A stretch of DNA of 38,519 bases from Thermodesulfobacteriota bacterium. GTDB lineage: Bacteria > Desulfobacterota > Desulfobacteria > Desulfobacterales > SURF-7. The notes beneath the pieces are model-generated. The model was not told the DNA's origin and ran no database searches. It was given only the letters and a program-made list of their open reading frames with translations. The position numbers were made by a program, and so were the translations under genes. The stretch is from assembly GCA_049320885.1 (NCBI GenBank), contig JBMORA010000067.1, positions 1 to 38,519 on the forward strand, written 5' to 3'. Below, piece after piece: positions 5,169-25,802 of this stretch; position 1 is the stretch's first letter, and each line of letters begins with the position of its first letter.

Positions 5169-6311
5169 ATGGATTTTGCATTTACCAAAGAACAACTGAT
5201 GTTCAAAAAAGAGGTTATCCGGTTTGCCAAGAAGGAAATCGTACCCCGGGTCCAGGAACATGATTTGAACAAGGAGTTTGATTTCGAATCGTTCCGGAAG
5301 CTCGGCGAGTTCGGAATACTGGGGTTGCATTTTCCGGAAGAACTCGGCGGGGGCGGCGCGGATGTCATCACCACCGTTCTGGCCGGTGAGGCCCTCGGTG
5401 AGGCCGGCGTGGACGGCGGCCTGACCCTGGCGCTGGGCGCCCATACCTTTCTGTGCGCGGACACGTTGTACCGGCATGCCACGGAAGAGCAGCGGAAAAA
5501 ATACATTCCCAAGCTGGCCAGCGGGGAATGGATCGGTTGCATGGGGCTTACCGAGCCGGATGCCGGCTCCGATGTGGCCTCCATGAAAACCATCGCGGAA
5601 AAAAAGGGCGATAACTATATACTGAACGGCAGCAAGATTTTTATCACCAACGGTCCCATCGCGGATGTGGCGGTGATTTATGCCAAAACCAATCCTGAAA
5701 TGAAGCATGCCGGGATTTCCGCCTTCATTGTTGAAAAAGGGACCCCGGGTTTTTCCTCCGGACCCAACATCATCAAGATGGGGGTGCGCACCTCCCAGAC
5801 CTCAGAGCTGTTTCTGAACAATTGCGAAATACCCGCCGGAAATCTGCTGGGTAAAGAAGGGGACGGCTTCAACATGTCCATGCAGACGGTGGAATGGGAC
5901 CGCAGCGCGTTGCTGGCTCCGTTCGTCGGCGCTTCCACGTTCATGCTGAAACGCTGTGCCGAATATGCCAAGGGACGGGTGCAGTTCGGCCGTTCCATCG
6001 GCCAATTCCAGGCCGTCAAGCACAAGCTGGCCAATATCCGGATATTCGCCGAGGCGGCCCGTTCGCTGGTGTACCGCATCGCCTGGTGCAAGGACCAGGG
6101 GCGGCCGCTGAACCATCTGGAGGCGGCGGTGGCCAAACTGTTCGTGGGTGACTGGAGCATGGCTCCCGCCAACGACGCCGTGGTTCTGCATGGCGGTTAC
6201 GGCTATTGCCATGAGTATGATATGGAACGGATTTTCCGTGACAGCCGCCTGGCGCCCATCGGCGGGGGAACATCCGATATTCAGAAAATGATCATCTCCA
6301 AGCTAATCTAA
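5169..6311 (+). CDS. Acyl-CoA dehydrogenase (ACAD-1)
   Basis: GCMGLTEPDAGSD, LNGSKIFITNG, KMGVRTS, RVQFGRSIGQFQAV, HGGYGY, RDSRLAPIGGGTSDIQ. ATG 5169 follows GGAGAGG. Confidence 0.93.
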   Translation: MDFAFTKEQLMFKKEVIRFAKKEIVPRVQEHDLNKEFDFESFRKLGEFGILGLHFPEELGGGGADVITTVLAGEALGEAGVDGGLTLALGAHTFLCADTLYRHATEEQRKKYIPKLASGEWIGCMGLTEPDAGSDVASMKTIAEKKGDNYILNGSKIFITNGPIADVAVIYAKTNPEMKHAGISAFIVEKGTPGFSSGPNIIKMGVRTSQTSELFLNNCEIPAGNLLGKEGDGFNMSMQTVEWDRSALLAPFVGASTFMLKRCAEYAKGRVQFGRSIGQFQAVKHKLANIRIFAEAARSLVYRIAWCKDQGRPLNHLEAAVAKLFVGDWSMAPANDAVVLHGGYGYCHEYDMERIFRDSRLAPIGGGTSDIQKMIISKLI

Positions 6312-6359
6312 CTGCGGCGGGAACAGTATTATCCGCCGGGGAGAATCAGGGGGAAACCG

Positions 6360-7499
6360 ATGAATTACGATTTCAACAATCAGGAATTACAATTGTTTGT
6401 TCAGTTGCAGGAAATGATGCAAGCCTATACGGCGGCAGCCGATCCGGAGAAAGGCGATGTCGCCGCCGTGGAGCGGACGGTTCGGGGAGCGCTGGCCCGC
6501 CTGGGGGAAACGCCCTATTTGAATCTGGGACTTCTGCCCCAGGCGGGTTATAACGGAATGCTCACACTCATGGGGGCCATGGAAGTGCTGGCCGGTTTGT
6601 CGCCCTCGCTGTTCCTTTCCGTTGAGATGAGCACCCGGGTTTTCGGGCGGATGGTCCAGGCCTGGGGGGATCCGGATCAAAAAACCAAATGGATGGCGCC
6701 GCTGACGGCCGGCCGGCTGATCGGGGCCGTGGGGCTTTCCGAGGAGGCCATGAACGTGGAGAACGAGGCTCTGAAAACAACGGGCTCCCCGGATGGCGAC
6801 GGCGTGGTGATCAACGGTCGCAAACAATATGTGATTAACGGCCCCATCGCCGACTGGTTGGCGGTGGCGGGTGTCATGGACGGCAGGAACGCCTTGTTCC
6901 TGGTGGAAAAGAACACGAAAGGACTGGTGCTGGAAGAACGGCTGGCCACCCTGGGATATGAAGGGGCCGCCATCTGCAATATCCGGCTGGAAAATTGCCG
7001 GATTCCGAAAAACCAGGTGGTGATCCCGGCCGAGGACCGCGCCGGTCTTGATCGGATCCGCCTGTGGGAAAACCAGGTCATTCTGGGGGCCAGCATCGGA
7101 CTCATGAAATCCGCTTTCGAGGCGGCCAGAAATTACGCCAAGACCCATAAAAGCGGGGGAAAGCCCGTCATCGCCTTCCAGGAAGTCGGATTCAAGCTGT
7201 CCGAGATGCTGACCCTGACGCAGACGTCGCAGCTGTTTGCCTACCGGGCGGCCTGGACCGCGGAAGACAATCCCAAAGAAGCGGAATCCATTACCCTCTG
7301 CGCCAAGGTGTTCTGCACCGAAGCGGCGGAGCAGGTGGCCGGCAATGCCCTGCAGATACTTTCCGGAGCGGGATATCTGACCGGCAATGCGGTGGAAAGG
7401 GCTTACCGGTGCGCTAAATACGGGCAGATCGCGGGCACTTCGACGGAGATCGCCCGGGTGAAAATCGGTGACGATGCGCTGGGAGCCCGGGCTGCGTGA
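6360..7499 (+). CDS. Acyl-CoA dehydrogenase-like protein, degenerate (possible partner subunit of ACAD-1)
   Basis: ACAD-like motifs in altered form: GAVGLSEE, INGRKQYVING, GKPVIAFQEV, LQILSGAGY, VERAYRCAK, GTSTEIAR. Confidence 0.85.
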   Translation: MNYDFNNQELQLFVQLQEMMQAYTAAADPEKGDVAAVERTVRGALARLGETPYLNLGLLPQAGYNGMLTLMGAMEVLAGLSPSLFLSVEMSTRVFGRMVQAWGDPDQKTKWMAPLTAGRLIGAVGLSEEAMNVENEALKTTGSPDGDGVVINGRKQYVINGPIADWLAVAGVMDGRNALFLVEKNTKGLVLEERLATLGYEGAAICNIRLENCRIPKNQVVIPAEDRAGLDRIRLWENQVILGASIGLMKSAFEAARNYAKTHKSGGKPVIAFQEVGFKLSEMLTLTQTSQLFAYRAAWTAEDNPKEAESITLCAKVFCTEAAEQVAGNALQILSGAGYLTGNAVERAYRCAKYGQIAGTSTEIARVKIGDDALGARAA

Positions 7500-8185
7500 T
7501 GCCGAAAAGCAGAGAAAAAGAGCTGGAAGAAAAAAAGGAAGTGCTTTCCAAGTCAGCGCTGCGCAGGCAGCGGGAGCGGGAGCAGCGGTACCAGAGTATC
7601 CTGAGCGCAGCGGAGACACTGTTCGCCCGGGAGGGATATCACAAGACCAGCATGGAGCGCATTGCGGACGCCGCCGAGGTATCCGTCGGTGCGGTGTACT
7701 TCTACTTCAAGAACAAAGAAGACCTGCTGGTCCAGTTGCTGGACGAAATCGGTTTTCGGCTGCGCGCCCTGCTGGGCGATGAGTTTAAAAAGTCCGGCGC
7801 TTCCCTGGCGGGCTTCCGGCAGGCGGGGCGAATGTTTTTCGAGGAGTTCTGCGCACGATATCCCGAGAAGGTCGCCATCGTCTTCCGGGAATCCGTGGGG
7901 CAGAGTCCCGTGGTGGAGGCCCGCCGCAAGGAGATTTTCGACAAACTGACCGGTGATGTCCTGAATGCCCTGCGGAAGATGAGCGGCAGCCAGGGGGCGA
8001 ATTTCCGCAGCCGGTTTTCGGCCGAGGTGATCGCCGTCAGCATCATGGGCATTTACGAGCGCGTGGCCTACGAGTATCTGTTCTGGCAGGACCGCAGCAA
8101 GGATTTCACCGCCATCGGAATGGACGCCGTGGCCTTCATCGTGGGCGGCATCAACAACCTGTTCGGGGAGACACCATGCACTTGA
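7499..8185 (+). CDS. TetR/AcrR family transcriptional regulator
   Basis: HTH ILSAAETLFAREGYHKTSMERIADAAEVSVGAVYFYFKNKEDL. TGATG overlap with the upstream gene; alternative GTG start at 7496. Confidence 0.93.
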   Translation: MPKSREKELEEKKEVLSKSALRRQREREQRYQSILSAAETLFAREGYHKTSMERIADAAEVSVGAVYFYFKNKEDLLVQLLDEIGFRLRALLGDEFKKSGASLAGFRQAGRMFFEEFCARYPEKVAIVFRESVGQSPVVEARRKEIFDKLTGDVLNALRKMSGSQGANFRSRFSAEVIAVSIMGIYERVAYEYLFWQDRSKDFTAIGMDAVAFIVGGINNLFGETPCT

Positions 8186-8739
8186 AGGGTGCCCTGCACG
8201 TGCACACCACCTGCTCGGACGGCGAGCTGACGATTGCCGAGGTGGTGCGGGTATACGAGAGTCTCGGTTTCGATTTCATCGCCCTGACCGACCATGATTA
8301 TCTCATCCGCTCCAACTGCTATGCGGCGGTTTCCACGGTGCGGACGGATATGATCATTTTTACGGGTGTCGAGATGACGGTGTTCGAAAAAGGCTATGTG
8401 CATGTCAACCGCATCGAGGGGGACCGGGAGGTGCTGCATGTCTTCAACCATCCTTCCGAACTGGACCTGCCCTTTGCCAAGGTCAAGGAGCGGATCATGG
8501 CGGTGGCGGAACGGATTCCGCTGGACGCCGTGGAAATCACTTCCAAGGGATTTCGCACCAAGGAATACGAAACACCCGAGCTTCCGTTTCACAAGGTGGC
8601 TACGGATGACGCCCATACCCGGCTGATGTGCGGCCGGGCATGGATCGAGATGGATTGCATGCGGGAAAAGGATTTGATCATCCGGGCCATCAAGGCCGGA
8701 GATTTCTGGAACTGTTTCACGGAAACGCATGGATTTTAG
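8176..8739 (+). CDS. PHP-domain metal-dependent hydrolase
   Basis: LKGALHVHTTCSDG, FIALTDHD, GVE, NHP and TDDAH metal-ligand motifs. Overlaps the TetR stop by 10 nt. Confidence 0.88.
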   Translation: MHLKGALHVHTTCSDGELTIAEVVRVYESLGFDFIALTDHDYLIRSNCYAAVSTVRTDMIIFTGVEMTVFEKGYVHVNRIEGDREVLHVFNHPSELDLPFAKVKERIMAVAERIPLDAVEITSKGFRTKEYETPELPFHKVATDDAHTRLMCGRAWIEMDCMREKDLIIRAIKAGDFWNCFTETHGF

Positions 8740-8788: not shown

Positions 8789-9961
8789 ATGGCAAGACGA
8801 GTCGCAATTTGCGCCGTGGCGCAAACGAAATGGGAACGAAATAAATGGCAGGAGCGCTTCCAGGGGATGGCCATCGACGTCCTGGAATCCCTCAGGGAAC
8901 AGACCGGAGTGGACTTTGCCAGGAAACAGCTGAAGAAAAAAAAGAAGAAGCCCGGCATCAACATGACCATCAGTGTCTCCGACGATATTTTCGATGCCCG
9001 CACCATCTCCAACAATGGTATGACCGATGTGCTGGGCGGCCATTTCGGCTGCGAGGAAAAGGTGGCCCAGGAAGGGATTCAGGCGGTTTACTATGGCTTG
9101 GCGGCGATTCAGTCCGGCCACAATGATGTGGTGCTGCTGATGGGCCATTGCAAGGAATCCCAGGGCCAGAGCCGCAACATGGTGACCCATGTGGCCTTCG
9201 ATCCCTTTTTCACCCGGCCGGTGGGTCTGGATTTCTGCGCCGCCGCCGGCTTGCAGGCCCAGGCCTATATGGCCAAGGCAGGCATCACCGACGAACAGCT
9301 GGCGGATATCGTGGTCCGTTCCCGGAAATATGCGGCCAGGAATCCCGCCATCGCGGATCTTCCGCCGGTCACCCGGGAAGAGGTCATGGCTTCCGAAATG
9401 CTGGCCGATCCCATCCGGAGGCTGCACGCTTATCCGGTGTCGGACGGCGCCGTGGGCATGATTCTGGCGGCCGAGGAGGTCGCCGTCAAGCTGACGGACA
9501 AACCGGTCTGGATCGAAGGTGTCGGCAATTCCATGGATAGCTTTTTCATGGGGGACCGGGATCTGGCCTCCAATTTCGCCCTGAAAAAGGCCGCCGAGCG
9601 GGCGTATAAGCGCGCGGGAATCAAGGATCCCCGTTCCGCCTTTGATGTCCTGGAGGTCTCGGATCAGTATGCCTATCAACTGCCCATGTGGATGGAAGGC
9701 CTGGGGATTTGCGATGAGGGCAAGGGCGGCGCCTGGATCCAGGCCGGCGGCCCCGACAAGAGTCATGTCAATCTGTCCGGAGGGATGCTGGCCGGGAATC
9801 CGTTGATTCTGGGCGGTCTGGTGCGGGCCGCCGAAGCCGCCCTGCAGTTGCGGGGGGAGGCCGGCGACCGTCAGGTGGCGAATGCGAAAAGGGCGCTGGC
9901 CCATGGCGTCATGGGACCGGCCGGACAGTTTCACTCCGTAGCGATTTTGGCGCGGGATTAG
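8789..9961 (+). CDS. Non-canonical thiolase-fold protein, Ltp4-like (module 1)
   Basis: Thiolase-family motifs PVSDGA, DVLEVSD, VNLSGGMLAGNP and AALQLRGEAGDRQV, but no catalytic Cys or His motifs. SDDIFDAR and DPFFTRPVGLD..AAGLQA resemble Ltp4 as recalled. ATG 8789 follows AAGGAGG. Confidence 0.85.
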   Translation: MARRVAICAVAQTKWERNKWQERFQGMAIDVLESLREQTGVDFARKQLKKKKKKPGINMTISVSDDIFDARTISNNGMTDVLGGHFGCEEKVAQEGIQAVYYGLAAIQSGHNDVVLLMGHCKESQGQSRNMVTHVAFDPFFTRPVGLDFCAAAGLQAQAYMAKAGITDEQLADIVVRSRKYAARNPAIADLPPVTREEVMASEMLADPIRRLHAYPVSDGAVGMILAAEEVAVKLTDKPVWIEGVGNSMDSFFMGDRDLASNFALKKAAERAYKRAGIKDPRSAFDVLEVSDQYAYQLPMWMEGLGICDEGKGGAWIQAGGPDKSHVNLSGGMLAGNPLILGGLVRAAEAALQLRGEAGDRQVANAKRALAHGVMGPAGQFHSVAILARD

Positions 9962-9973: not shown

Positions 9974-11158
9974 ATGAATAAAAATAGAAATGTAGGTATC
10001 GTCGGTGTAGGACAGTCCGTTTATTCGAGCCACCGGGAGGAAGTCAACCAGCCTGAAATGATCCATGAAGCCGTGGTGGCGGCCCTGAAGCACGCCGGTA
10101 TCACCATGGACGACGTGGATTGCGTGGTTCACGGAAACATGGAATTGTTTGAGATGGTGCATCAGCCCGATCTATGGCACACCCTGGGATCCGGGGCCTT
10201 CGGCAAGGAATCCCTGCGGGTCACCACCGGAGGGACCACCGGCGCCACCCTGGTAGCGGTGGCGGATTATCTGGTGTCCTCGGGCATGCATGATATCGTC
10301 ATGGCCATCGGGTTTGAAAAACTGCAGGAGGGGCATACCACCGGCGGCATCACCAACATGGCCGATCCCCTGTGGGCGCGGCAGTTGCAGACCGGCGCCC
10401 TGACCGGCATGACCGCCGCGGACGTGATCAATGAGTTCGGCGAGGAAAGGGCCAAGAAGGCCTCCATGAAATACCGCATCATCATGGACAAGCACGCCAT
10501 GAAGAACAAACACGCCCATCGCCGCCTGGGGCTGGAATTCGACCAGGCCGACGATCTGATGAAAAGCTCCCCGGCCCTGGTGGGCGAGCTGCGCATGATT
10601 CATATGTGTTCCCAGAGCGACGGGGCCTGCGTCATGATTTTCGCCTCCGAGGAAAAAGCCAAGGCGCTCCGCAAGCAACCCGCCTGGATCAAGGACCATA
10701 TAACGGTTCACCGGGAGGAAAGCTTCTGCATTTTCGGCGATGCGCCCTACGTGACCAGCCACCGGTACGCGGCCGAGACTCTTTTCAAGCGCAACGGCAT
10801 CAAAAATCCCCGCAAGGAACTGGACATGTTCGAGATGTACGACCCTTCCAGCTGGTGGGGATTGGACTGGCTCCGGGAGTTTCTGCTGCTGGAAGGCGAC
10901 GAACATTTGAAAATGGTCGAAAGCGATGAGATCACCATCGACGGCGATTTTCCGGTCAATCCGTCCGGCGGCGTAACCGCCTCCAACCCCATCGGCGCCA
11001 CGGCCATGGTGCGCGTGGCGGAGGCGGCCCTGCAGATCATGGGAGAGGCCGGGGATCATCAGGTCAAGAAAAAGGTCAACCAGGCGCTGGCCTCCGGATT
11101 CGGCGGAACCATGTGGACGGTGCTGTTCCTGCTGACCCGGGAAGTCCCCCGTTTGTAA
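9974..11158 (+). CDS. Non-canonical thiolase-fold protein, Ltp3-like putative aldolase subunit (module 1)
   Basis: RVTTGGTTG where the nucleophile Cys normally lies; GFEK, CSQSDGAC, FEMYDPSSW, VNPSGGVTASNPIGATAMVRVAEAALQ, SGFGG. GGGAGG RBS. Confidence 0.87.
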   Translation: MNKNRNVGIVGVGQSVYSSHREEVNQPEMIHEAVVAALKHAGITMDDVDCVVHGNMELFEMVHQPDLWHTLGSGAFGKESLRVTTGGTTGATLVAVADYLVSSGMHDIVMAIGFEKLQEGHTTGGITNMADPLWARQLQTGALTGMTAADVINEFGEERAKKASMKYRIIMDKHAMKNKHAHRRLGLEFDQADDLMKSSPALVGELRMIHMCSQSDGACVMIFASEEKAKALRKQPAWIKDHITVHREESFCIFGDAPYVTSHRYAAETLFKRNGIKNPRKELDMFEMYDPSSWWGLDWLREFLLLEGDEHLKMVESDEITIDGDFPVNPSGGVTASNPIGATAMVRVAEAALQIMGEAGDHQVKKKVNQALASGFGGTMWTVLFLLTREVPRL

Positions 11159-11224: not shown

Positions 11225-14200
11225 ATGAACCTTGGCAAATTTTTCGATGATGCCGTCAATCGATTCAAGACCGATCCATATATGACGTTTTATGAGGAAA
11301 CCCTTACTTACGGCGACCTGGGCAAACGCGTAAACCGAATGGCCAACGCGCTGAAGAAGCAGGGGTTTAAAAAAGGGGATTTCATTCATGTCTGGGTACA
11401 GAACAGCCCCCAGACCCTGGTTTCCTATTTCGCCATCATCAAGATCGGCGCGGTGGCCGGTCCCATCAACGGCTGGTGGAAGGGGGGGGAGGTGGAATAC
11501 CTGCTGAACGATTCCCGGGGTTGCGGCCTGATCGTGGAAGAGCAGTATCTGCCGATTTTCAAGGAAATCAAGGAAAAATGTCCCCATTTGAAGAAGATCA
11601 TCGAGGTCAGTCCGAAACCCATGGAAGGCCATGTGGCCTTCAGCGATCTTCTGAACCAGAGCGATGACACGGAAGTGGTTTGCGACAGCGATCCGGAAGA
11701 CAACGCCTATATTTTCTACACGTCGGGGACCACCGGCAATCCCAAGGGCGTACTGCTTTCCCATAAAAACGTCGTGGCCGATTCCAACATGATCAACGCC
11801 GCGCTGGACACTCCGGAGAAAAAGAATTTTCTCTGCTTTCTGCCGCTTTTCCATGTAAATGCCATGCTGACCTGCACCTCCAGCATGCAGAAGGGGCACC
11901 ATATCATCCTCCGAAAGCAGTTCAGCGCCAGCGAGTTCTGGGAAGTGGTGGAAAAATACAAGGTCAACTTCTGGTCGGCGGTGCCGGCGGTTTATCAGAT
12001 CCTGCTGTCCGACCCGTCCCGGCAGAAATACGATTTGAGTTCCATGGAATTCGGGATATGCGGCGCCGCGCCCCTGACCCAGGAGACCATGACCAATTTT
12101 GAAAAAACCTTCAAGATTCCCATCGTGGAAGGTTATGGGCTCACGGAGGGAACCTGCGTCAGCACCATCAATCCGCGGGTGGGGGTCCGCAAGGTCGGTT
12201 CCATCGGTCTGGCCCTGCCGGGCCAGGATGTCCGGATCGTGGATGAGGACGGAAAGGAATTGGGGGTCAACCAGCCCGGCGAGATCGTCATCAAGGGCGA
12301 CAATGTCATGAAGGGCTATTTCAACAAACCCGAGGAGACCGCCAAGACCATTATCAACGGCTATCTGCATACCGGGGACGTGGGCATCAAGGACGAGGAC
12401 GGCTATATCTTCATCGTGGACCGTAAAAAAGACATGATCATCCGCGGCGGGGAAAACATTTATCCCAAGGAAATCGACAACCTGCTGGCGACCCATCCGA
12501 AAATTTCCGAGGCCGCCACCGTGGGCGTTCCGGACAAAACCATGGGCGAAGAGGTCAAGGTCTTCGTGGTGGCGGAAGACGACAGCCTCACCGAGGAAGA
12601 GGTCATCGATTTCTGCAAACAGAAACTGGCAGCCTTCAAAGTTCCGAAATACGTGGAAATCCTGGAAGGCGATTTCCCCCGCAGCCCCATCGGCAAGGTG
12701 CTCAAGAAAACCCTGCGGGATTGGGGCCTCAAGGGCGCTCCCAAGGAAAAAGGGCCGGAGGTCACGGTGGCGGACATTTTCGGCACCATGGAATCCCGGG
12801 TCATTCCGGAAGGCGTGGCCGGCATCAAGGCCAATTACGGCTACAAGATCACGGGTACGGGCGGCGGCGACTATACGGTCTGCGTGGCGGACGGGAAGGT
12901 CCAGGTGAAGGCGGGCCTGCATGATCCCCATGTGACCACCACCATCGCGGCCAAGGACTGGATCGCCATCACCCTGGGCAAACTGGACGGCATGACGGCC
13001 TTCAGCTCCGGCAAGTTGAAAGTGGAAGGCGATCTGGGGCTGCTGACCAAGGCCACGGGCTTTTTCCGGAAATACCAGCCCCCGGCGGCAGCCCCCAAGG
13101 TCACCGTGGAAGACATTTTCGGCACCATGGAGTCCCGGGTGAACCCCGAGGGCATCAAGGGCGTTACCGCCAATTACGGGTATGTCATCACCGGCACGGG
13201 CGGCGGCGAATGGACGGTCTGCGTGGCCAACGACACGGTGAAGGTGAAAACGGGCCTGCATTCTCCCCATGTGACCACCACGGTGGCGGCCAAGGACTGG
13301 ATCGCCATCACCCTGGGCAAGCTGGACGGTATGACGGCCTTCACCTCCGGCAAATTGAAAGTGGAAGGCGACTTGGGGCTGCTCACCAAGGCCACCCAGT
13401 TTTTCAAGAAATACCAGCCGCCGGCGGCGGCCGCGGAAGTCACGGTGGAAGACATTTTCGGCACCATGGAATCCCGGGTGAATCCGGAAGGCGTTAAAGG
13501 GGTGACGGGTAACTACGGCTACAAGATTACGGGTACGGGCGGCGGCGAATGGACGGTCTGCGTGGATAACGGCAAGGTCACAGTCAAGAAGGGCATCCAC
13601 AATCCCCATGTGACCACCACCTGTTCGGCCAAGGACTGGGTCGCCATCACCCTCGGGAAACTGGACGGCATGACGGCTTTCACCTCCGGCAAGCTCAAGG
13701 TGGAAGGGGATATGGGGCTTTTGACCAAGGCCACCAAGTTCTTCAAGAAATATACGCCGCCTTCGGCCGGACAGGAAGAGGCGCGCGAGGAGCTGATCGT
13801 CAAGCGCCAGATCCTCTCCATCCCCCAGAAATTTTCCACCGGTCCGGTGATGGGGAAATTCCTCAACGCCTTCAAGGAAAAGAAGATTCTGGCGAACAAA
13901 TGTCCGGAATGCGGTCGGCTCCAGGTTCCCCCCCGGGAGGTATGCGCCGAATGCATCGTGCGCTGCGACGAGTGGGTGGAGGTCGGACCCGAAGGCGTGC
14001 TGTCCATTGCGGATATCACCTACTATGCCAGCCCCGATCCCCTCTCCGGAGAGACCCGGGAAACCCCCTACGTTTCGGCCCATTTTCTGCTCGACGGTTG
14101 CAAGGACCATGAAACCATGTGGCATGAGCTGAAGGCGTCCGATCGCGACCGCGCCAAGCGGGGCGTGCGGGTTCGTCCGGTCTGGAGCGAGAACCGGGTC

Positions 14201-18409: not shown

Positions 18410-19555
18410 ATGAGCCAGCGAGTTGCTGTTTGCGCTGTTGCGCAGATCAAGAACGAGGCGGACATCTGGTACCAGCGTTTCCAGGGGATGCTGTTCGACT
18501 GTGTCGAATCCATCGTCCGTCAAACCGGGGTGACCTTCGATATGGACAAGGGTATCCGCAACGTGGTCACCTGTTCCGACGATGTGTTCGACGCCCGCAC
18601 CATCTCGGACAACGGCATGACCGATGTGGTCGGCGCCCATTACCGCGGGGAGGAAAAAACCGCCCAGGACGGAATCAACGCCCTGGGATACGCCATGGCC
18701 ATGATTCTGTCCGGACATGACGATCTGGTGCTGATTACGGGACACTGCAAGGAGTCCCAGTCCGAAAGCCGCAGGATGTGCACCAATCTGGCCTTCGATC
18801 CTTTTTATACCCGGCCCCTGGGACTGGATTTCTGGAATGCCGGGGCTTTTCAAGCCAGGGCCTATATGGCCAAGGCCGGACTGACCGACGAGCACCTGGC
18901 CAGGATCGTGGTGCGGGCGAGACAAAATGGCGCGGCCAATCCCCATGCCCGGGAAAACGAACCGGTCACCCTGGAAGAGGTGATGAAAAGCCCCCTGCTG
19001 GCCGATCCCATCCGGGAGCTGCATTGTCACCCGGTGACGGATTGGGCTGTCGGCATGCTGTTATGTTGTGAAGAGCGTGCCCGGGAATTCACCGACAAGC
19101 CGGTCTGGATCACCGGATTCGGCAGCTGCATGGACAGTTATTTCCTGGGAGACCGGGATCTGGCCGCGAATTTCGCTCTGAAGAAAGCCGCTGCAAGGGC
19201 GTATCAAATGGCCGGGGTGACGGACCCGAAAACCGCCTTCGACGTCGTTGAATTGAATGACGCCTGCGCCTACCAGCTGCCCCTGTGGGCCGAAGGAACG
19301 GGGCTCGTGGAGGAAGGACAAGGCGCCTCCTGGATCGAGAAAGGCGGCATGGAGCGCCAGCATGTCAATCTCTCCGGCGGTATGCTGAACGGCAATCCCA
19401 TCATGCTGGGCGGCCTGGCCCGCGCCACGGAAGCGGTGCTGCAACTGAAGGGAGAGGCCGGCAAGCGCCAGGTGCAAGGCGCCCGGAAGGCTCTGGCCCA
19501 TGGCACCACCGGGCCGGCGGGTCAACATCATGCAGTGATAATCCTTGAAAAATAA
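18410..19555 (+). CDS. Non-canonical thiolase-fold protein, Ltp4-like (module 2; paralog of 8789-9961)
   Basis: Shares SDDxFDARTISxNGMTDV, GHCKESQ, AFDPFxTRPxGLDF, GDRDLAxNFALKKAA, VNLSGGML and GPAGQxH with the module 1 copy. Confidence 0.87.
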   Translation: MSQRVAVCAVAQIKNEADIWYQRFQGMLFDCVESIVRQTGVTFDMDKGIRNVVTCSDDVFDARTISDNGMTDVVGAHYRGEEKTAQDGINALGYAMAMILSGHDDLVLITGHCKESQSESRRMCTNLAFDPFYTRPLGLDFWNAGAFQARAYMAKAGLTDEHLARIVVRARQNGAANPHARENEPVTLEEVMKSPLLADPIRELHCHPVTDWAVGMLLCCEERAREFTDKPVWITGFGSCMDSYFLGDRDLAANFALKKAAARAYQMAGVTDPKTAFDVVELNDACAYQLPLWAEGTGLVEEGQGASWIEKGGMERQHVNLSGGMLNGNPIMLGGLARATEAVLQLKGEAGKRQVQGARKALAHGTTGPAGQHHAVIILEK

Positions 19556-19565: not shown

Positions 19566-20777
19566 ATGGGAACCAGGAAAAAACAAAGAAATGTCGGCAT
19601 CGTGGGAATCGGTGAGACCAAGTTTTCCAGCCACCGGGAGGACGTCAACCAGCCGGAAATGATTCATGAGGCGGTGCGGCAGGCCCTGGACGACGCCGGC
19701 TTGACCATGGACGATATCGATTGCGTGGTCCACGGCAACATGGAACTGTTCGAAATGGTGCACCAGCCGGACCTGTGGCACACCCTGGGCAGCGGGGCAT
19801 ACGGCAAGACCGCCTTCCGCCTGACCACCGGCGGCACCACCGGCGGCACTCTGGTGGCGGCAGCCGACAACCTGGTGGCCTCCGGTATGTACGACACGGT
19901 GCTGGCCATCGGATTCGAAAAACTGCAGGAAGGCCATACCACCGGCGGCATCACCAACATGGCGGACCCGCTGTGGGCCCGCAAACTGCAATCCGGCGCG
20001 CTCACCGATTCGGCGGCGGTGAAGGTCATCGCGGAATTCGGTGAAGAGCGGGCCCGCAGGGCCGCCATGATGTATCGGATCATCATGGACAAACATGCCT
20101 GCCTGAATCCCAATTCCCATCGGGCCTTCGGTCTGGAATGGGATCAACTGGAAGACCTGATGAAGAACTCCCCGCCCTTGATCGGCGATCTGCGCCTGAT
20201 TCATATGTGCTCACAGTCGGACGGAGCCTGCGCCATGATATTCGCGGCGGAGGAAAAGGCCAAAAAGATCACCGGAAATCCGGTCTGGATCCGGGATCAC
20301 ATCACCGTACACCGGGAGGAGACCCTGAATCTCTGCAACAATTACTATCCGAACGAAACCACCCATCGCTTTGCAGCGGAAACCCTCTACAAACGAAACG
20401 GGATCGAAAATCCGCTGGAATATTTCGACGTATTCGAAATGTACGACCCATCCGCCTGGTGGGGTCTGGACTGGATCCGGGATTTTTTCCTGCTGGAAGG
20501 GGATGAACACTTGAAACTGGTGGAGCAGAAGGAAATCATGAAGGACGGCAGGATGCCGATCAATCCTTCCGGCGGCGTCATCGCCGCCAATCCCATCGGC
20601 GCCACGGCCATGGTGCGTGTGGCCGAAGCCGCCAAACAGGTCCGCGGCAACGCCGGGCCGCATCAGATATCTCGTCCCGTGAAGCATGCCATGGCCTCCT
20701 CCTTCGGCGGGACCATGTGGACGGTGCTGTTTCTACTGGAGAAGGATTTAAACTGGCAGGGGGGGAACCATGACTGA
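19566..20777 (+). CDS. Non-canonical thiolase-fold protein, Ltp3-like putative aldolase subunit (module 2; paralog of 9974-11158)
   Basis: Blocks identical to module 1: DCVVHGNMELFEMVHQPDLWHTLGSGA, GFEKLQEGHTTGGITNMADPLWAR, HMCSQSDGAC, FEMYDPS, FGGTMWTVLFLL. ATG 19566 follows GGGGAG. Confidence 0.87.
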   Translation: MGTRKKQRNVGIVGIGETKFSSHREDVNQPEMIHEAVRQALDDAGLTMDDIDCVVHGNMELFEMVHQPDLWHTLGSGAYGKTAFRLTTGGTTGGTLVAAADNLVASGMYDTVLAIGFEKLQEGHTTGGITNMADPLWARKLQSGALTDSAAVKVIAEFGEERARRAAMMYRIIMDKHACLNPNSHRAFGLEWDQLEDLMKNSPPLIGDLRLIHMCSQSDGACAMIFAAEEKAKKITGNPVWIRDHITVHREETLNLCNNYYPNETTHRFAAETLYKRNGIENPLEYFDVFEMYDPSAWWGLDWIRDFFLLEGDEHLKLVEQKEIMKDGRMPINPSGGVIAANPIGATAMVRVAEAAKQVRGNAGPHQISRPVKHAMASSFGGTMWTVLFLLEKDLNWQGGNHD

Positions 20778-21618
20778 ATACTTCGGAGTGAAAATTGCTG
20801 ATATCTTTGGCTCCATGGCGGATCGTTTCCGTCCGGAGGGAGCCGCGGGCGTTTCCCGGTCGTACGGCTACGACATCAAGGACCACGGGAAATGGAAACT
20901 GACCATTGCCGATGGAAAAATGGCGCTTTCGGAAACCAGCGACCTCGCGGGTTGCGACGTGATTGCCAGCATGGACGGCAAGACGTTCGTCGGACTCAAC
21001 ATCGGCAAGGTCGACGGCATGGAAGCCTTCACCTCGCGCAAATTGACGGTCAAGGGGGATTTCGCCCTGTTCGGGCAGACCAGTCGTTTTTTCCACAAAT
21101 TCGTCGTTCCGGGGCAGACGACGGTCCAGGAACAGGAACTCCTCGTCCTCAAAAAAACCATCTCCGTCAACCAGCGGTTCGCCACCGGACCGGTGATGGG
21201 TAAGTTTCTGAAGGCCCTGCGGGACAAGAAAATTCTGGCCATCAAATGCCCGGTCTGCGGCCGGCTTCAGTCCCCGCCCAGGGAAGTCTGCGCCATCTGC
21301 CGGGTCCGCAACACCGAATGGGTGGAGATCGGACCCAAGGGGGAAATGCGCATGCTGGAGTACTGCTATTACGCCAGCCCGGCCCCGCTGACGGGCGAAA
21401 CCCGGGAAACGCCTTACGGCGCCATCGGCATTCTGCTGGACGGTTGCAAGGGTGAAGAAGTTTTCTGGCATTTGCTGCGTCCCGACCAGTTGAAGAAGGT
21501 GAAAATGGGTATTGTGTTGGGCGACAAGGTCGTCCACGGAACCCGCCTGCGGCCGGTATGGTCGGAAAAGCGTACCGGCAGCATCGATGACATCAAATAT
21601 TTTGAAATCGACGAATAG
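20770..21618 (+). CDS. SCP2 + Zn-ribbon/OB-fold (DUF35) fusion
   Basis: ADIFGSM...VDGMEAFTSRKLTVKGD (SCP2), then TGPVMGKFL, CPVCGRLQSPPREVCAIC and GETRETPY. Colinear with the C-terminal part of the 1005-aa fusion. Confidence 0.9.
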   Translation: MTEYFGVKIADIFGSMADRFRPEGAAGVSRSYGYDIKDHGKWKLTIADGKMALSETSDLAGCDVIASMDGKTFVGLNIGKVDGMEAFTSRKLTVKGDFALFGQTSRFFHKFVVPGQTTVQEQELLVLKKTISVNQRFATGPVMGKFLKALRDKKILAIKCPVCGRLQSPPREVCAICRVRNTEWVEIGPKGEMRMLEYCYYASPAPLTGETRETPYGAIGILLDGCKGEEVFWHLLRPDQLKKVKMGIVLGDKVVHGTRLRPVWSEKRTGSIDDIKYFEIDE

Positions 21619-21629
21619 AGGAAACAGCC

Positions 21630-22100
21630 ATGAGAGAAAACTTTGACACCACCGATTGCTATACAATCGAAGGCAAGCTGGCGCTGCCCTATACGTATTT
21701 CGCCGGCCGGGTGGGGAGCACGTTCATCACCACCATCCGGGATCAGAAGAAAATCATGGGAGTCAAGTGCCGGCGCTGCGACAAGGTCTTCGTTCCGCCA
21801 CGCCAGACCTGCGAACGCTGCATGGAAGACATCCGCAACAACTGGGTGGATTTGAAAAACACCGGAAAGCTGGTGAATTTCACCGTGGTGCGCTATGATG
21901 ACAAACACCTGCCCCGCAAGGCACCGTTCATTCTGGGCCTGATCCTGCTGGAAGGAGCGGATACGCCCATGGTGCATGTGGTGGAAGGGATCGGTTCCGA
22001 TCAGGTGAAAATCGGCATGGGGGTGCGGGCGGTTTTCAGTGCCAAGACGACCAATACCATTCTCGATATCGATCATTTCGAGCCGGTGGGGGATAAATAG
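21630..22100 (+). CDS. Zn-ribbon/OB-fold (DUF35) protein
   Basis: GKLALPYTYFAGR, CRRCDKVFVPPRQTCERC, GADTPMVH, DIDHF. Paralog of the N-terminal half of 14267-15166. Confidence 0.9.
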   Translation: MRENFDTTDCYTIEGKLALPYTYFAGRVGSTFITTIRDQKKIMGVKCRRCDKVFVPPRQTCERCMEDIRNNWVDLKNTGKLVNFTVVRYDDKHLPRKAPFILGLILLEGADTPMVHVVEGIGSDQVKIGMGVRAVFSAKTTNTILDIDHFEPVGDK

Positions 22101-22171: not shown

Positions 22172-22975
22172 ATGGGTCTTGTTTATGAAAAAAAGGACGG
22201 GATTGCCTATCTGACCCTCAACCGGCCGGAGGCCCACAACGCCATCGACCCGGAGACCGTGTTGGAATTGATCCGGGCCTGGGAGGACTATCGGGACGAT
22301 GACGGCATGCGCTGCGCCATCATCACCGGTTCGGGGGAGCAGACGTTCTGCTCGGGGGCCGATTTGGGGAAACTGATTCCCCTTTTTACCGGCGCGAAGA
22401 AAGCGGAAACCGAAGCGGACAAGCAGATTCAGAAGAATCCGCTGCTGGCCCAGAAGGCGCTGCTGCGCGATTTCGAGCTGTACAAGCCGGTCATTGCCGC
22501 CGTCAACGGCCATGCCATCGCCGGCGGCATGGAATTGCTGTATTCCACCGACCTGCGGGTGGCTGCCGAGGGGGCGCGTTTCGGCCTGCAGGAAGTCAAG
22601 TGGTCCATTTTCCCCATGGGCGGCTCCAGCGTCAAACTGCCCCGCCAGCTGCCCTATGCCCGGGCCATGGAGATACTGCTCACCGGCGAATTGATGACCG
22701 CGGAGGAGGCCCTGAGGCACGGTTTCGTCAACCGGGTGGTTCCCCAGGCCCAACTCATGGCGGAAGCGGAACGGTATGCCCGCCTGATCGCGGCCAACGG
22801 CCCCCTGGCGGTGACGGCCATCAAGAAGGCCGTATTGACCAATATCGGGCTGACCATCCATGACGGCCTGGCCAAGGAAATGGAAATCGCCATTCCGGTG
22901 TTTTTGAGCGAGGACGCCAAGGAGGGGCCGCGGGCCTTCAAGGAGAAACGGGCGCCGCAATTCAAGGGGAAATAG
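22172..22975 (+). CDS. Crotonase-family enoyl-CoA hydratase (EchA19-like)
   Basis: LTLNRPEAHNA, FCSGADL, KPVIAAVNGHAIAGGME, FGLQEVKWSIFPMGGS (both catalytic Glu present), VFLSEDAKEGPRAFKEKR. ATG 22172 follows GGGAGG. Confidence 0.92.
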   Translation: MGLVYEKKDGIAYLTLNRPEAHNAIDPETVLELIRAWEDYRDDDGMRCAIITGSGEQTFCSGADLGKLIPLFTGAKKAETEADKQIQKNPLLAQKALLRDFELYKPVIAAVNGHAIAGGMELLYSTDLRVAAEGARFGLQEVKWSIFPMGGSSVKLPRQLPYARAMEILLTGELMTAEEALRHGFVNRVVPQAQLMAEAERYARLIAANGPLAVTAIKKAVLTNIGLTIHDGLAKEMEIAIPVFLSEDAKEGPRAFKEKRAPQFKGK

Positions 22976-22980
22976 GCGAA

Positions 22981-23001: not shown

Positions 23002-23060
23002 AATGGCGGTATGCTGGCAGTTGCAGGGGGTAGGCCTACTATAAAAAGGGAGGGCGGGTG

Positions 23061-24986
23061 ATGGCGACACAATACAAGGGCTATGCCGGTAAGATGCTGG
23101 ACGTGGATCTCACTTCCGGCAGGATCGGAGAATATCCGCTGTCGGATGTGGATCGGGAGCGGTTTTTGGGAGGGCGCTTTCTCAGCACCAAGATTCTCTG
23201 GGATGAACTGACCCCGGGTGTCGATCCCCTGTCGCCCGAGAATATCCTGGTGGTGATGACGTCGCCCCTCACCGGTACCGGCGCGCCATCCAGCAGCCGC
23301 TACGATATCTCCTCCCGCAGTCCGCTCACCGGCGGGATCGGGCATTCCAACAGCGGTGGCAATTTCGGGATTCATCTGAAGCGCGCCGGCTGGGACGGCA
23401 TCGTGATCCGCGGCCGGGCGGAGAAGCCGGTGTTTCTCGAAATCCGGGAAGACCAGGTTCAGATCCGCGACGCCGGCCATATCTGGGGCCTGGACACCAT
23501 GGCGGCCCAGGAGGCCATGGGCAAGGGCGGGACCATGGCCATCGGCCCGGCCGGGGAAAACCTGGTGAAATACGCCACCATCGCCTCCCAGGAACGGATG
23601 CACGGCCGAACCGGCATGGGCGCGGTCATGGGCTCCAAGAATCTCAAAGGGATGGTGGCCGGCGGCAGCAAGAAGATCGAGCTGCATGACCGAGAGAAAT
23701 TCAAGGAAGGGGTCAAGAAATGGGTGGGCATGCTGACCCGGCATCCGGCCACCGGCGAGTTCGCCCCGCGGTTCGGCACGTCCGGGTTTCTGACGTCCCT
23801 GTCGATCCACAACGCCCTGCCGACGAAAAATTTTTCCACCGGGACTTTCAAGGACGCCTACATGATCGGCGGAGAGCGCCTGGCCAACGAATTCCTGGTG
23901 AAGAACTACGGCTGCATCTCCTGCCCGATCCGCTGCGGCCGGGTGGTGAAGATCGACGGCAAGGAGGTCAAGGGCCCGGAATACGAGATTCTGTGCCTGA
24001 TGGGCTCCAACCTGATGATCAACGACATGGACGCCATCATCCGCTGGAATTACGAACTCGACCTCCTTGGGATCGACACCATCACCGTGGGGAACGTACT
24101 GGGATTCGCCGCGGAGTTGAATGAAAAGGGCTTGTGGAGAAACGGGATCGAATTCGGCAAAACGGAAAATATCTCCCAATTGCTCAGCGACATCGCCCAT
24201 CGCCGGGGGGTGGGCGATGACCTGGCCGAAGGTGTCCGCTTCCTGTCCGAAAAATATGGCGGCAAGGATTTCGCCGCCCACGTGAAGGGCCTCGAAATCG
24301 CCGCCTATGAACCGCGGGCCTGCGTGGGGCACGCCCTGGGCTATGCCACCGCCAGCCGCGGCGCCTGCCATCTGGACGGAGGGTATATGGTGTATCTGGA
24401 AGTCAGCGGACCCATGACCCTCGATCCTTTCCATTTCCGTTCAAAACCGGGCTGGGTGATTTTGGATCAGGATCTGATGGCGGCGGTGAGCGCCGGAGGC
24501 AACTGCCTGTTCACCTCCTGGACCTTCGTGCCTGGGTTCGCGTATGCGTTGCCCGGCCACCGGATTCTCTCCCTGATCGTCAGCAAGGTGCTGACCTATA
24601 CATGGCCGGTGATCGACATGCTGCTGAAGGTGCCGCCTTTTCTGATGAAATTTCACCTGCCGCTTTTGCCCCATTCCAAATTCATCAAGCTGGCCACCGG
24701 CATGAAGATGGATTACGGCCGTTTTCTGCGGGCCGGGGCCAGGGGGTATACCCTGGAGAGAATGTTCAATCTGCGGGAAGGGATCGGCAAGGAACAGGAT
24801 TCACTCGCCAGGCGCTTTACGGATGATCAGCTGATTGCCGGCAATACAAAAAGCCGTGTTCCGCTGGGGAAAATGCTGCCGAAATATTACAAACTGCGGG
24901 GCTGGGATGAAAACGGGATCCCCAGTCCCGGGACGTTGAAGCGGCTCAACCTTGATTTCGCGAATCTGGAATCGAACGGTCGATAG
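23061..24986 (+). CDS. aor: Aldehyde:ferredoxin oxidoreductase (tungstopterin AOR family)
   Basis: GYAGKMLDVDL, RSPLTGG, SNSGG, IGPAGENLV, GRTGMGAVMGSKNLK, Fe-S motif CISCPIRC, GPEYE, VKGLE..AYEPR, RGACH, GNCLF, YYKLRGWDENGIP. Alternative GTG start at 23058. Confidence 0.93.
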   Translation: MATQYKGYAGKMLDVDLTSGRIGEYPLSDVDRERFLGGRFLSTKILWDELTPGVDPLSPENILVVMTSPLTGTGAPSSSRYDISSRSPLTGGIGHSNSGGNFGIHLKRAGWDGIVIRGRAEKPVFLEIREDQVQIRDAGHIWGLDTMAAQEAMGKGGTMAIGPAGENLVKYATIASQERMHGRTGMGAVMGSKNLKGMVAGGSKKIELHDREKFKEGVKKWVGMLTRHPATGEFAPRFGTSGFLTSLSIHNALPTKNFSTGTFKDAYMIGGERLANEFLVKNYGCISCPIRCGRVVKIDGKEVKGPEYEILCLMGSNLMINDMDAIIRWNYELDLLGIDTITVGNVLGFAAELNEKGLWRNGIEFGKTENISQLLSDIAHRRGVGDDLAEGVRFLSEKYGGKDFAAHVKGLEIAAYEPRACVGHALGYATASRGACHLDGGYMVYLEVSGPMTLDPFHFRSKPGWVILDQDLMAAVSAGGNCLFTSWTFVPGFAYALPGHRILSLIVSKVLTYTWPVIDMLLKVPPFLMKFHLPLLPHSKFIKLATGMKMDYGRFLRAGARGYTLERMFNLREGIGKEQDSLARRFTDDQLIAGNTKSRVPLGKMLPKYYKLRGWDENGIPSPGTLKRLNLDFANLESNGR

Positions 24987-24998
24987 AGGAGGATGAGG

Positions 24999-25802
24999 AT
25001 GAAAAATCTGGCGAAAAAAGTCGTCGCGATCACCGGCGCCGCCGCCGGTATCGGCAAGGAAATGGCCCTGCTCTTTGCCGCGGAAAAGGCCTCGCTGGCA
25101 CTGATGGACATCAACGAGAAGCAACTGGAGGTCACGGCCGGGGAGCTTGCCGGATACGGTGTCACCGTGCGGAAATATGTCTGCAATGTGGCCGACAAGG
25201 ATAAGGTGGAGGCGGTCTGCGCGGAGATCAAGCGGGATTTCGGTTTTGTGGATGTCCTGGTCAACAACGCCGGCATCGTGGTCGGGAAATCCATTGAAGA
25301 CAGCAGTTATGAGGAGATCCGGCGCACCATCGACGTCAACCTGACCGGCCTGATCTGGCTGACCAAGCAGTTCCTGCCGGAAATGACCCGGCGGAATTCC
25401 GGCCATATCGTGAACATCGCCTCCGCCGCCGGGATGCTGGCCATCCCGCTGCTCGGAGATTACTGCGCCACGAAGTTCGCCGTGGTCGGCTTCACGGACG
25501 CGCTGCGCATGGAAATGAAGAAATTCGGCCATGCCGGCGTCAAGACTACCTGTGTCTGCCCCTCGATAATCGACACCGGCATGTTTACCGGCTTCAAACC
25601 GCCGCTCCTGAATCCCCTGCTGCAGCCGAAAGAAGTGGCCCGGCGAGTGGTGGATGCGGTGAAAATGGAAAAGACCTACGTGAAGATGCCGTTCATGGTG
25701 AATCTGATTCCCCTGTTCAAATTTCTACCGGCTCCGTTCGTCGACTGGCTGGGGGATATCCTCGGCACCACCAGGTCCATGGATCATTTCAAGGGACATT
25801 GA
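24999..25802 (+). CDS. Classical short-chain dehydrogenase/reductase (17beta-HSD11/RDH10-like), probably NAD-dependent
   Basis: TGAAAGIG, Asp at the end of beta2 (LMDIN), VLVNNAGIV, GHIVNIASAAG, YCATK, TTCVCP..IDTGMF. Alternative start at 24993. Confidence 0.9.
   Translation: MKNLAKKVVAITGAAAGIGKEMALLFAAEKASLALMDINEKQLEVTAGELAGYGVTVRKYVCNVADKDKVEAVCAEIKRDFGFVDVLVNNAGIVVGKSIEDSSYEEIRRTIDVNLTGLIWLTKQFLPEMTRRNSGHIVNIASAAGMLAIPLLGDYCATKFAVVGFTDALRMEMKKFGHAGVKTTCVCPSIIDTGMFTGFKPPLLNPLLQPKEVARRVVDAVKMEKTYVKMPFMVNLIPLFKFLPAPFVDWLGDILGTTRSMDHFKGH

Follow-up and report, generated by a model that had tools for sequence, protein, structure and literature searches.

We describe here a run of 17 co-directional genes (5169-25802, + strand) of a Thermodesulfobacteriota bacterium, in which two pairs of thiolase-fold proteins (ThlA1/ThlB1 and ThlA2/ThlB2, hereafter A/B pairs) may act as lyases on beta-branched 3-hydroxyacyl-CoAs. 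The run lies on a stretch of 38,519 nucleotides, the window, which is contig C67 (JBMORA010000067.1) of a 5.6 Mb genome of 98% completeness (G000; G and L labels denote the genomes and loci compared, and C labels contigs). It is a real and conserved feature, a variant in anaerobes of the Ltp3/Ltp4 kind and not a set of thiolases. We give a probability of about 0.6 to the reading that each pair is a lyase equivalent to AtuA of the acyclic terpene utilisation (Atu) pathway; family, residues, conservation and an exchange of gene cassettes were observed, and the chemistry is read from them conditionally. On this reading, the two subunits of a pair would together form a cysteine-free C-C lyase of the Ltp4/Ltp3 type, which DUF35 adaptors would connect to a ligase, a hydratase and SCP2 domains that bind lipids. 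Its task, that of AtuA in acyclic-terpene breakdown, would be to cleave a tertiary 3-hydroxyacyl-CoA that cannot be oxidised owing to its beta-branch. There is little knowledge of the enzymes by which anaerobes pass beta-branches in isoprenoid and other branched lipids, and thiolase labels (several relatives of these proteins are annotated 'acetyl-CoA C-acetyltransferase') lead metabolic reconstructions to take such genes for ordinary beta-oxidation. Because of the exchange with the Atu cassette, a specific, testable substrate class can be named for the Ltp3/Ltp4 family, and the finding also bears on the poorly defined AtuA reaction. A literature search, with most subscription journals outside its coverage, found no publication on this operon or on Ltp3/Ltp4 enzymology.

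Two A/B pairs related to Ltp4 and Ltp3

The original prediction, made from the sequence, held that the thiolase-fold proteins lack the catalytic Cys and His. Indeed, both the nucleophilic Cys and the G-H-P His are absent from all four, with Gly at the position of that Cys in each. In ThlB1, Gly87 replaces the Cys, Tyr289 stands at the position of the YDHF motif of Ltp2 and Asn338 replaces the His, as in Ltp3; Gly87 and Tyr289 were each found in 105/105 distinct ThlB homologs (many of them near-copies). The ThlA residue at the catalytic-Tyr position varies (S in 69, N in 23, C in 8 and others in 4), so that B is likely the catalytic subunit; to judge from these residues ThlB is the probable catalytic partner and ThlA1 probably non-catalytic. 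In the sections consulted of PMC12329534 (what we say of cited papers refers to such sections throughout), the Tyr is the aldolase base of Ltp2 and Sal, and the lost Cys is the reason why Sal cannot perform thiolysis. That thiolase-fold aldolases cleave 3-hydroxyacyl-CoAs was background to the original prediction; in the literature consulted, biochemistry exists for Ltp2 and Sal, and the activity of Ltp3/Ltp4 rests on genetics.

The tree check suggested with the original prediction places the four proteins apart from true thiolases. In a 48-row IQ-TREE analysis, ThlA1 and ThlA2 grouped with Ltp4 (support 98/87) and ThlB1 and ThlB2 with Ltp3 (97/95), and both sides joined in one A+B clade (100/99), with canonical thiolases, a BbsB and an Ltp2 left outside it; the 152-row FastTree analysis, from which the 48 rows were drawn, concurs. 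Four basal rows of the PRK06065/PRK06066 type were weakly placed by IQ-TREE (65-66). The references were actinobacterial pairs passing the PRK07937 (Ltp4) and PRK08313 (Ltp3) cutoffs, which we take to be Ltp4 and Ltp3; the gene context of the reference locus agrees, as it also holds a ligase, a double-DUF35 protein, EchA19, a P450 and a steroid thiolase. Adjacent ltp3, ltp4, echA19 and fadD19 locus tags in PMC6593523 fit this naming.

The predicted model of ThlB1 has a thiolase fold (predicted local distance difference test, pLDDT, 91; Foldseek TM score 0.87-0.88 to 6et9 and 6esq), and the A1-B1 complex model scored 0.95 against 0.00 for the best of three controls, with contacts agreeing to at least 94% and a partner pLDDT of at least 89. 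The mark used for complex models was reached by 116/157 solved pairs versus 2/215 mismatched pairs; likeness to solved thiolase dimers may account for the predicted A1-B1 score.

Could these proteins be unusual thiolases or hydrolases, acting on 3-oxoacyl-CoAs through another nucleophile (e.g. Cys212 of ThlB or Cys141 of ThlA) or through water, with the short-chain dehydrogenase/reductase (SDR) of the run as 3-hydroxyacyl-CoA dehydrogenase? Cys212 is present in 105/105 ThlB and Cys141 in 98/104 ThlA homologs, and the solved folds closest to the ThlB1 model are archaeal, SCP2-type and BbsB thiolases. However, Cys212 lies in a C-x-x-x-D-G segment in which Ltp2, Ltp3 and BbsB have a Cys too, Cys141 is replaced in Ltp4 and in most distant A-side proteins, the SDR is not conserved, and the tree separates the four proteins from active thiolases. 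We regard this explanation as highly improbable.

Related proteins also occur outside the locus. On contig C54 of the same genome (L161:1077-2300), a thiolase-fold protein placed beside Ltp2 by the tree (100/98), with the aldolase position occupied by Tyr, is a possible third aldolase of this genome, judged by its sequence. A plasmid of the betaproteobacterium Cupriavidus necator (L123) carries an A/B/DUF35/DUF35 module of the same clades together with a crotonase and ligases, so that the family extends beyond strict anaerobes.

Exchange of the Ltp and Atu cassettes

The run has a scaffold of two acyl-CoA dehydrogenases (ACAD1 and ACAD2) and a TetR regulator on one side and a MaoC hydratase and ACAD3 on the other, and between TetR and MaoC stands the Ltp cassette here and the Atu cassette in relatives. 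In relatives without ThlB, ACAD1-ACAD2 are usually followed by carboxyltransferase, biotin carboxylase, biotin carrier, hydratase and AtuA, and often then by ACAD3; in G051 and G187 the slot holds nothing but hydratase and AtuA, and it is empty in G028, G033 and G105. The clearest pair comes from one genus: G220 (Atu cassette) and G162 (Ltp cassette) are collinear for more than 14 kb on each side, mostly at 87-95% identity, and differ only from where TetR ends to where MaoC starts. In G220, and likewise in G193, a stand-alone MaoC with 81-82% identity to the MaoC half in the window follows the Atu cassette.

The distribution of the two cassettes agrees. Among 201 genomes of the order, whose kinship means that the counts overstate independence, 37 have ACAD1 orthologs: 12 with ThlB only, 21 with AtuA only, 2 with both and 2 with neither. 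Where an Atu-type carboxyltransferase is present (44 genomes), ThlB was found in 6 of the 8 without AtuA versus 3 of the 36 with it; those six derive from three genera. The genome under study is itself without AtuA, in that it has no PF07287 match. Since both cassettes use the same slot and the same flanking genes and are distributed in a near-complementary way, they probably solve the same metabolic problem. For the Atu pathway, AtuA has been proposed as the lyase that acts on the tertiary alcohol (PMC4847356, PMC13689101), and the AtuA-like ThnQS is reported to cleave a tertiary alcohol in naphthalene degradation, according to a review that partly cites unpublished work (PMC12016498). Of the independent evidence, this exchange speaks most strongly for cleavage of beta-branched tertiary 3-hydroxyacyl-CoAs by the Ltp pairs, and it supports such a role; the Ltp cassette probably stands in for AtuA.

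Conservation of the locus

Synteny among anaerobes, another check suggested at the outset, shows the module to be conserved across related loci. Of 204 related loci the best 80 were counted, and a locus was dropped from a given count if it did not extend far enough on the side concerned; the closest relatives are mostly Desulfobacterales, and spirochaetes are at 70-71% identity. ThlA was found in the same locus as ThlB in 72/72 cases, together with the PHP-family phosphoesterase (67/68), DUF35/MaoC (55/57), TetR (51/65), ACAD1 (43/58) and ACAD3 (39/56). Gene order in relatives matches that of the window and the core, PHP-A-B-(SCP2-DUF35)-(DUF35-MaoC), is nearly invariant among the loci compared; the arrangement is not due to chance. 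A ThlB ortholog was found in 17 of the 201 genomes, 8 of which have two modules. Module 1 also occurs in two cultured strains, Desulfosarcina alkanivorans PL12 and D. widdelii PP31, of which PL12 has an Atu-type carboxylase and PP31 lacks it, a difference that makes the question of carboxylation directly testable.

The aldehyde:ferredoxin oxidoreductase (AOR), the SDR and the FATP-type ligase are accessory and not part of the core. Close AOR orthologs were found at the locus in G001, G002, G003, G009 and G033, and none was seen at the operon end in G013, G015, G032, G137, G074, G162 or D. widdelii; the SDR holds the end position only in G001 and G002. For these two genes we used extended regions, as the locus counts (1/42 and 0/42) are biased by the genes lying beyond the 10 kb flank. 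That SDR and AOR provide the entry steps from alcohol to acid receives slight support: both flank ACAD1 in G033, where the locus is of the AtuA type and has no ThlB ortholog.

Proposed chemistry, BKACE and the carboxylase of contig C14

In the proposed reaction, Tyr289 of the B subunit would deprotonate the 3-OH, as in Ltp2 and Sal, whereupon the C2-C3 bond would break and acetyl- or propionyl-CoA would be released. [quoted passage not shown] Residues H60, H62, E169, R248, E252 and D253 of the BKACE, comprising the Zn ligands and the catalytic Arg, Glu and Asp of the active form, are kept in 23/23 homologs, and we partly presume these roles. They are otherwise taken from PMC11961710, which with bioRxiv 10.1101/2023.02.15.528638 gives acetyl-CoA and a 3-oxo acid as BKACE substrates. 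The protein scores below all substrate-specific NCBIfam cutoffs. This type of BKACE, present in 15 of the 201 genomes, was found in 6/8 two-module versus 0/9 one-module genomes; it is fused to a DUF35 domain in eight loci (L083-L090) and adjoins the Atu cassette in G082 and G167.

The original prediction also proposed a bypass that needs no biotin carboxylase. This finds no support in the present genome, in which contig C14 carries an operon for a carboxylase of the methylcrotonyl-CoA/geranyl-CoA carboxylase (MCC/GCC) class that lacks AtuA, yet some carriers of the module lack a carboxylase. The C14 operon encodes carboxyltransferase, biotin carboxylase, carrier, hydratase, a BKACE, an ACAD and a TetR paralog; its carboxyltransferase is nearer to MCC beta (1e-194) than to GCC beta (7e-141), and orthologous clusters carry AtuA. 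At C14:387-10659 (L156) a second type of BKACE stands where relatives have AtuA, followed by a flavoenzyme of the old yellow enzyme (OYE) type; the Ltp operons of G013 and G015 are likewise followed by a similar OYE, and that of G003 by a probable one. In a published scheme, Ltp3/Ltp4 act after carboxylation at C28 and hydration, with a free carboxylate left (PMC6678751).

A branched acid would thus be converted to its acyl-CoA and then to the enoyl-CoA by ACAD1/2 and ACAD3, and the enoyl-CoA to a glutaconyl-type diacid by the Atu-type carboxylase of C14, unless a diacid substrate is activated directly by the CoA-transferase. Hydration and cleavage would then give acetyl-CoA and a free 3-oxo acid, that is, both substrates of BKACE, which would yield a shortened acyl-CoA and acetoacetate. 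In this scheme the lyase would be the constant element, and the glutaryl-type substrate would come either from a carboxylase or from diacids already bearing the second carboxyl, like the 3-substituted glutaryl-CoA that PMC12583861 proposes for limonene degradation. This fits most of the evidence for and against carboxylation. To a glutaryl-type substrate for at least module 2 we give somewhat less than an even chance.

Further genes recur near these enzymes. A GMC oxidoreductase, by its sequence a possible alcohol-oxidising entry enzyme, adjoins the window-type BKACE in an Ltp-type and an Atu-type locus (L029:2464-3981, L168:7086-8615). A glycyl radical enzyme of an unassigned subfamily is encoded with an extended SDR and glutaconate-type CoA-transferase genes on C28 of this genome (L165:3493-14160) and in G137 (L173:5300-12787), where the cluster directly precedes a window-type BKACE. 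Spirochaete metagenome-assembled genomes (MAGs) have a super-operon (L201-L206) with two A/B modules, DUF35-BKACE, CoA-transferase, ACADs and MaoC, and a biotin carboxyltransferase domain was not found in three of these four genomes. We considered whether the window CoA-transferase is IpdAB-like and rejected this, as glutaconate CoA-transferase (1poi, 4e-49) stands far above the other entries of that fold.

Points against the proposed lyase, and a route without carboxylation

Several observations weigh against this reading. Scores for the Ltp3 family (PRK08313; 279 and 263, cutoff 514) and the Ltp4 family (PRK07937; 164 and 163, cutoff 419) are well below the cutoffs, which suggests that the four proteins work like Ltp3/Ltp4 yet fall outside those families. 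ThlB, like Ltp3, has neither the proton donor of Ltp2 (a second Tyr, Tyr344) nor that of Sal (Cys304): in ThlB the Cys304/His296 site is taken by Pro, and the segment holding the donor of Ltp2 contains no Tyr. No solved Ltp3 or Ltp4 structure stood among the structure matches. Besides the kinship of the genomes, the cassette swap could mean a shared inducer and not a shared reaction, and the operator search (see below) gave no sign that window and C14 are co-regulated (rank 78 of 4414). A gene resembling HMG-CoA lyase, which in this genome scores below the family cutoff and which most Desulfobacterales examined also have, could serve the C14 carboxylase instead, and BKACE stands near a 3-hydroxyacyl-CoA dehydrogenase, with no aldolase nearby, in G180 and on C11 of G001. 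As to carboxylation, 8/14 genomes with ACAD1 and ThlB have no Atu-type carboxyltransferase, an MCC/GCC-class match is lacking in the complete genome of D. widdelii PP31, and no match to the carboxyltransferase domain PF01039 came from three spirochaete MAGs of unstated completeness that do keep DUF35-BKACE and CoA-transferase. Carriers of this kind mean that carboxylation cannot be general.

The same carriers speak for a strong rival, close to the original prediction, in which MaoC hydrates a beta-methyl enoyl-CoA and the A/B pair cleaves the product directly to acetyl-CoA and a methyl ketone, which is excreted, reduced or activated by another enzyme. It is also favoured by the comparison of G162 with G220, in which the entire carboxylase cassette and not AtuA alone is replaced, by D. 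widdelii, which has module 1 and ACAD3 and neither an MCC/GCC-class enzyme nor a window-type BKACE, and by the DUF35-MaoC fusion, which mirrors Shy and ChsH2, the direct feeders of Sal and Ltp2 (PMC11321319, PMC6678751). However, six of the eight genomes without an Atu-type carboxyltransferase keep a second MCC-like enzyme (36-40% identity), the DUF35-BKACE fusion is left unexplained, and this genome shows no ketone sink. It has no match to the acetone carboxylase family (PF02538, Hydantoinase_B), which led us to reject a sink of the acetone- or acetophenone-carboxylase type here; its two B12-mutase matches resemble methylmalonyl-CoA mutase and IcmF; and no ketone-activating enzyme was found in it. 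Hydantoinase_B was found in 12/36 genomes examined and not in G074 or G162. Direct ketone-forming cleavage by module 1, fed by its tethered MaoC, is compatible with the preferred glutaryl-type route for module 2. We assign the rival an appreciable probability, although a minor one, and the claim that no carboxylase takes part likewise remains doubtful.

The most far-reaching form, in which Ltp-type heterodimers, widespread in anaerobes, replace AtuA together with the whole ATP- and biotin-dependent carboxylase step, is on balance unlikely. Its DUF35 adaptors would have exchangeable partners (ligase, SCP2, MaoC, BKACE), beta-branches would be taken off isoprenoid or other branched lipids and no CO2 would be fixed, the products passing straight to a tethered BKACE or being released as methyl ketones. 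If true, it would open a way past the beta-branch block that has not been described before, and the isoprenoid ketones that occur in anoxic sediments would have a candidate biological source.

Substrate class

That the substrates are beta-branched lipids receives support from the Atu exchange, which points to beta-branched, probably acyclic isoprenoid-type acyl-CoAs. The four SCP2 domains and the long-chain ligases, as annotated from sequence, point to long hydrophobic chains and, given the Atu scaffold, methyl-branched, isoprenoid-type acids would be the most likely substrates. Cycloalkyl-acetates and 3-alkylglutarates are further candidates.

Sterol side chains, the other class named in the original prediction, are unlikely. 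For a degradation of C24-alkyl sterol side chains as in actinobacteria, one can cite that actinobacterial Ltp3, Ltp4, the double-DUF35 protein and EchA19 find their best matches in the window and that the run has four SCP2 domains. However, KstD was not found, a true KstD as query giving short FAD-motif matches only in this 98% complete genome; other genes of a Nocardia steroid cluster gave generic matches only, and the flanking scaffold is of the Atu type. Little probability, the least among the explanations considered, is left to this one.

Chain shortening of the Sal type would instead cut secondary 3-hydroxyacyl-CoAs, bulky or alpha-branched, to an aldehyde, which the AOR would oxidise with formation of reduced ferredoxin, the second ligase re-activating the acid. 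The AOR and the two ligases of the run agree with this, and Sal and the side-chain pathway of Sterolibacterium operate in such a way (PMC6678751). However, the AOR was not seen at the operon end in the seven relatives named above and accompanies an AtuA-type locus in G033, and neither the complementarity with AtuA nor the BKACE is explained, so that we judge it improbable.

Other features of the run and its surroundings

The gene inventory of the original prediction was confirmed in full (two CoA ligases, three ACADs, a MaoC and a crotonase hydratase, four thiolase-fold proteins, four DUF35 domains, four SCP2 domains, an AOR and an SDR; Table 1); TetR and PHP had been omitted. The run is free of canonical thiolases and of 3HCDH domains, as claimed; the cell is not, since strong Thiolase_N matches occur at five other places in the genome and 3HCDH matches on five contigs, and their absence from the run thus says little alone.

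Table 1. Features in and upstream of the gene run, in order of position in the window.
Feature	Position	Strand	Remarks
Monocarboxylate transporter	306-1646	-	Passes SfMCT cutoff (366 vs 320); downstream of CoA-transferase
CoA-transferase beta subunit, glutaconate CoA-transferase type	1819..2586	-	Pfam CoA_trans; best PDB match 1poi_B, E 4e-49
CoA-transferase alpha subunit	2583..3578	-	Likely TTG start at 3578
BKACE	3638..4498	-	PF05853, E 7.5e-94; divergent from run
Sigma70-like promoter overlapped by two degenerate TTGAAY-N3-RTTCAA palindromes	4920..4952	+	Candidate TetR operator
ACAD1	5169..6311	+	Asp244 at usual LCAD-type catalytic Glu position
ACAD2, divergent partner of ACAD1	6360..7499	+	Glu237
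TetR regulator	7496..8185	+	
Small PHP-family phosphoesterase	8176..8739	+	First gene of swapped cassette
ThlA1, Ltp4-side thiolase-fold subunit	8789..9961	+	Tree, motifs
ThlB1, Ltp3-side thiolase-fold subunit	9974..11158	+	Gly87, Tyr289 in YDP, Asn338
Acyl-CoA ligase - SCP2 x3 - DUF35 fusion	11225..14242	+	
DUF35 - MaoC hydratase fusion	14267..15166	+	DxNPxH motif; MaoC half is right junction of swap
ACAD3	15350..16516	+	Glu252 intact
FATP-type long-chain acyl-CoA synthetase	16544..18379	+	Passes PRK08279 (741 vs cutoff 625)
ThlA2	18410..19555	+	61% identical to ThlA1
ThlB2	19566..20777	+	71% identical to ThlB1; Gly, Tyr, Asn kept
SCP2 - DUF35	20770..21618	+	
DUF35	21630..22100	+	Half carrying BKACE in spirochaete loci
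Crotonase-type enoyl-CoA hydratase, EchA19-like	22172..22975	+	Both Glu residues present
AOR, accessory	23061..24986	+	
SDR, accessory	24993..25802	+	Best family PRK07825, below cutoff

ACAD1 has Asp at the catalytic-Glu site in 55/55 homologs, and its neighbour in the loci examined, ACAD2, keeps the Glu in 48/49; to judge from these residues, the two probably form a heteromeric dehydrogenase of an uncharacterised kind. The ACAD1-ACAD2 pair heads Atu-type as well as Ltp-type loci. ACAD3 is common to both versions of the locus; outside the run, the genome's protein most closely related to it is the ACAD encoded in the C14 carboxylase operon, at whose end stands the TetR paralog (45% identity). 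Each DUF35 carries two CxxC motifs; the DUF35 units are adjacent to the thiolase-fold proteins and match them in number, 4:4, and the SCP2 domains are distributed 3+1. Across relatives, the gene of the ligase fusion varies in its ligase domain and in the number of SCP2 domains, and the FATP-type ligase was seen only in the genus, other ligases occupying its slot elsewhere. The crotonase has EchA19 as its best NCBIfam family, below cutoff (290 vs 400), and is the best match in the genome of a true EchA19 (44% identity). Upstream, Glu51 of the CoA-transferase beta subunit, which we take to be catalytic as in GctB, is kept in 13/13 homologs; the alpha subunit is co-transcribed with the aldolase modules in spirochaete loci, and the monocarboxylate transporter was seen in its position within the genus only.

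The PHP protein keeps D39, H40, H92, D144, D145 and H147 in 71/71 homologs, and Atlas and PDB comparisons aimed at its substrate returned generic PHP matches only. Phosphoesterase-type genes recur near A/B pairs: PHP genes before modules 1 and 2, in spirochaetes a protein with weak SpoIIE/PP2C likeness behind a module of a third type (L204:519-1400) and another PHP-like gene beside the pair in G101 (L229:15361-16014). Such genes might point to a substrate that is phosphorylated or to a step of CoA repair. Another unusual acyl-CoA cluster stands on contig C55 of this genome (L162:4354-10532), where a PRK06157 thiolase-like gene and several ACADs have beside them genes for two long, SDR-containing fusion proteins of 711 and 910 aa.

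Two more copies of the palindrome in the candidate operator lie at 4700 and 4718. Its copies in this genome are weak; strong copies stand upstream of ACAD1 orthologs in many relatives, often two about 80 bp apart. The same palindrome precedes the Atu-type locus of G133, and there is a good match before an IcmF-thiolase cluster on C42. In a genome-wide operator scan, the sites of the window and C14 ranked 60, 78 and 116 of 4414 genes, with unrelated genes scoring higher. Terminator and promoter scans gave counts near shuffled levels and were excluded as evidence of operon structure.

Comparison with known systems

The closest known system is actinobacterial Ltp3-Ltp4 (with a tandem-DUF35 protein, EchA19 and FadD19), which serves C24-branched sterol side chains and has the same A-then-B gene pair and clades. 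The window B proteins share with Ltp3 the Gly for Cys, the Tyr and the S/A-N-P and G-G motifs; both systems have two DUF35 units per pair, and an EchA19-like hydratase stands beside module 2. The window proteins, however, are only 28-33% identical to this pair and below its family cutoffs, come in two modules with a PHP gene, and have DUF35 domains that are split and fused to SCP2, ligase and MaoC, or to BKACE in relatives; the host is an anaerobe in which no KstD was found, and the setting is an Atu-type scaffold, not a sterol cluster.

Ltp2-ChsH2 (6ok1) and Sal-Shy (9myr) share the thiolase fold without nucleophilic Cys, the Tyr in the HDCF-equivalent motif and a DUF35-MaoC partner. Unlike the window pairs, they have one kind of thiolase-fold subunit and belong to a separate clade at about 20% identity, and their donors Tyr344 and Cys304 are absent in the window. 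BbsAB, the archaeal thiolase/HMGCS/DUF35 complex and SCP2-thiolases share the fold as well (TM about 0.78-0.88), the first two also having Zn-finger partners as the window proteins do, but in the alignment both the nucleophilic Cys and the G-H-P His are retained by BbsB and the archaeal-type thiolases, which the tree places apart from the A+B clade.

HMG-CoA lyase (LiuE) followed by BKACE would achieve the same net reaction as that proposed for module 2, using a different enzyme family, which we take to be a TIM barrel, and no DUF35 or SCP2 tethering. The Atu pathway (AtuD, the geranyl-CoA carboxylase AtuC/F, AtuE and AtuA) shares with the window the genomic slot, the flanking ACADs, TetR and MaoC. 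AtuA belongs to a different family from the window pairs. It is proposed to form a 3-oxoacyl-CoA and acetate, while the products expected of a thiolase-fold aldolase would be acetyl-CoA and an oxo compound in free form.

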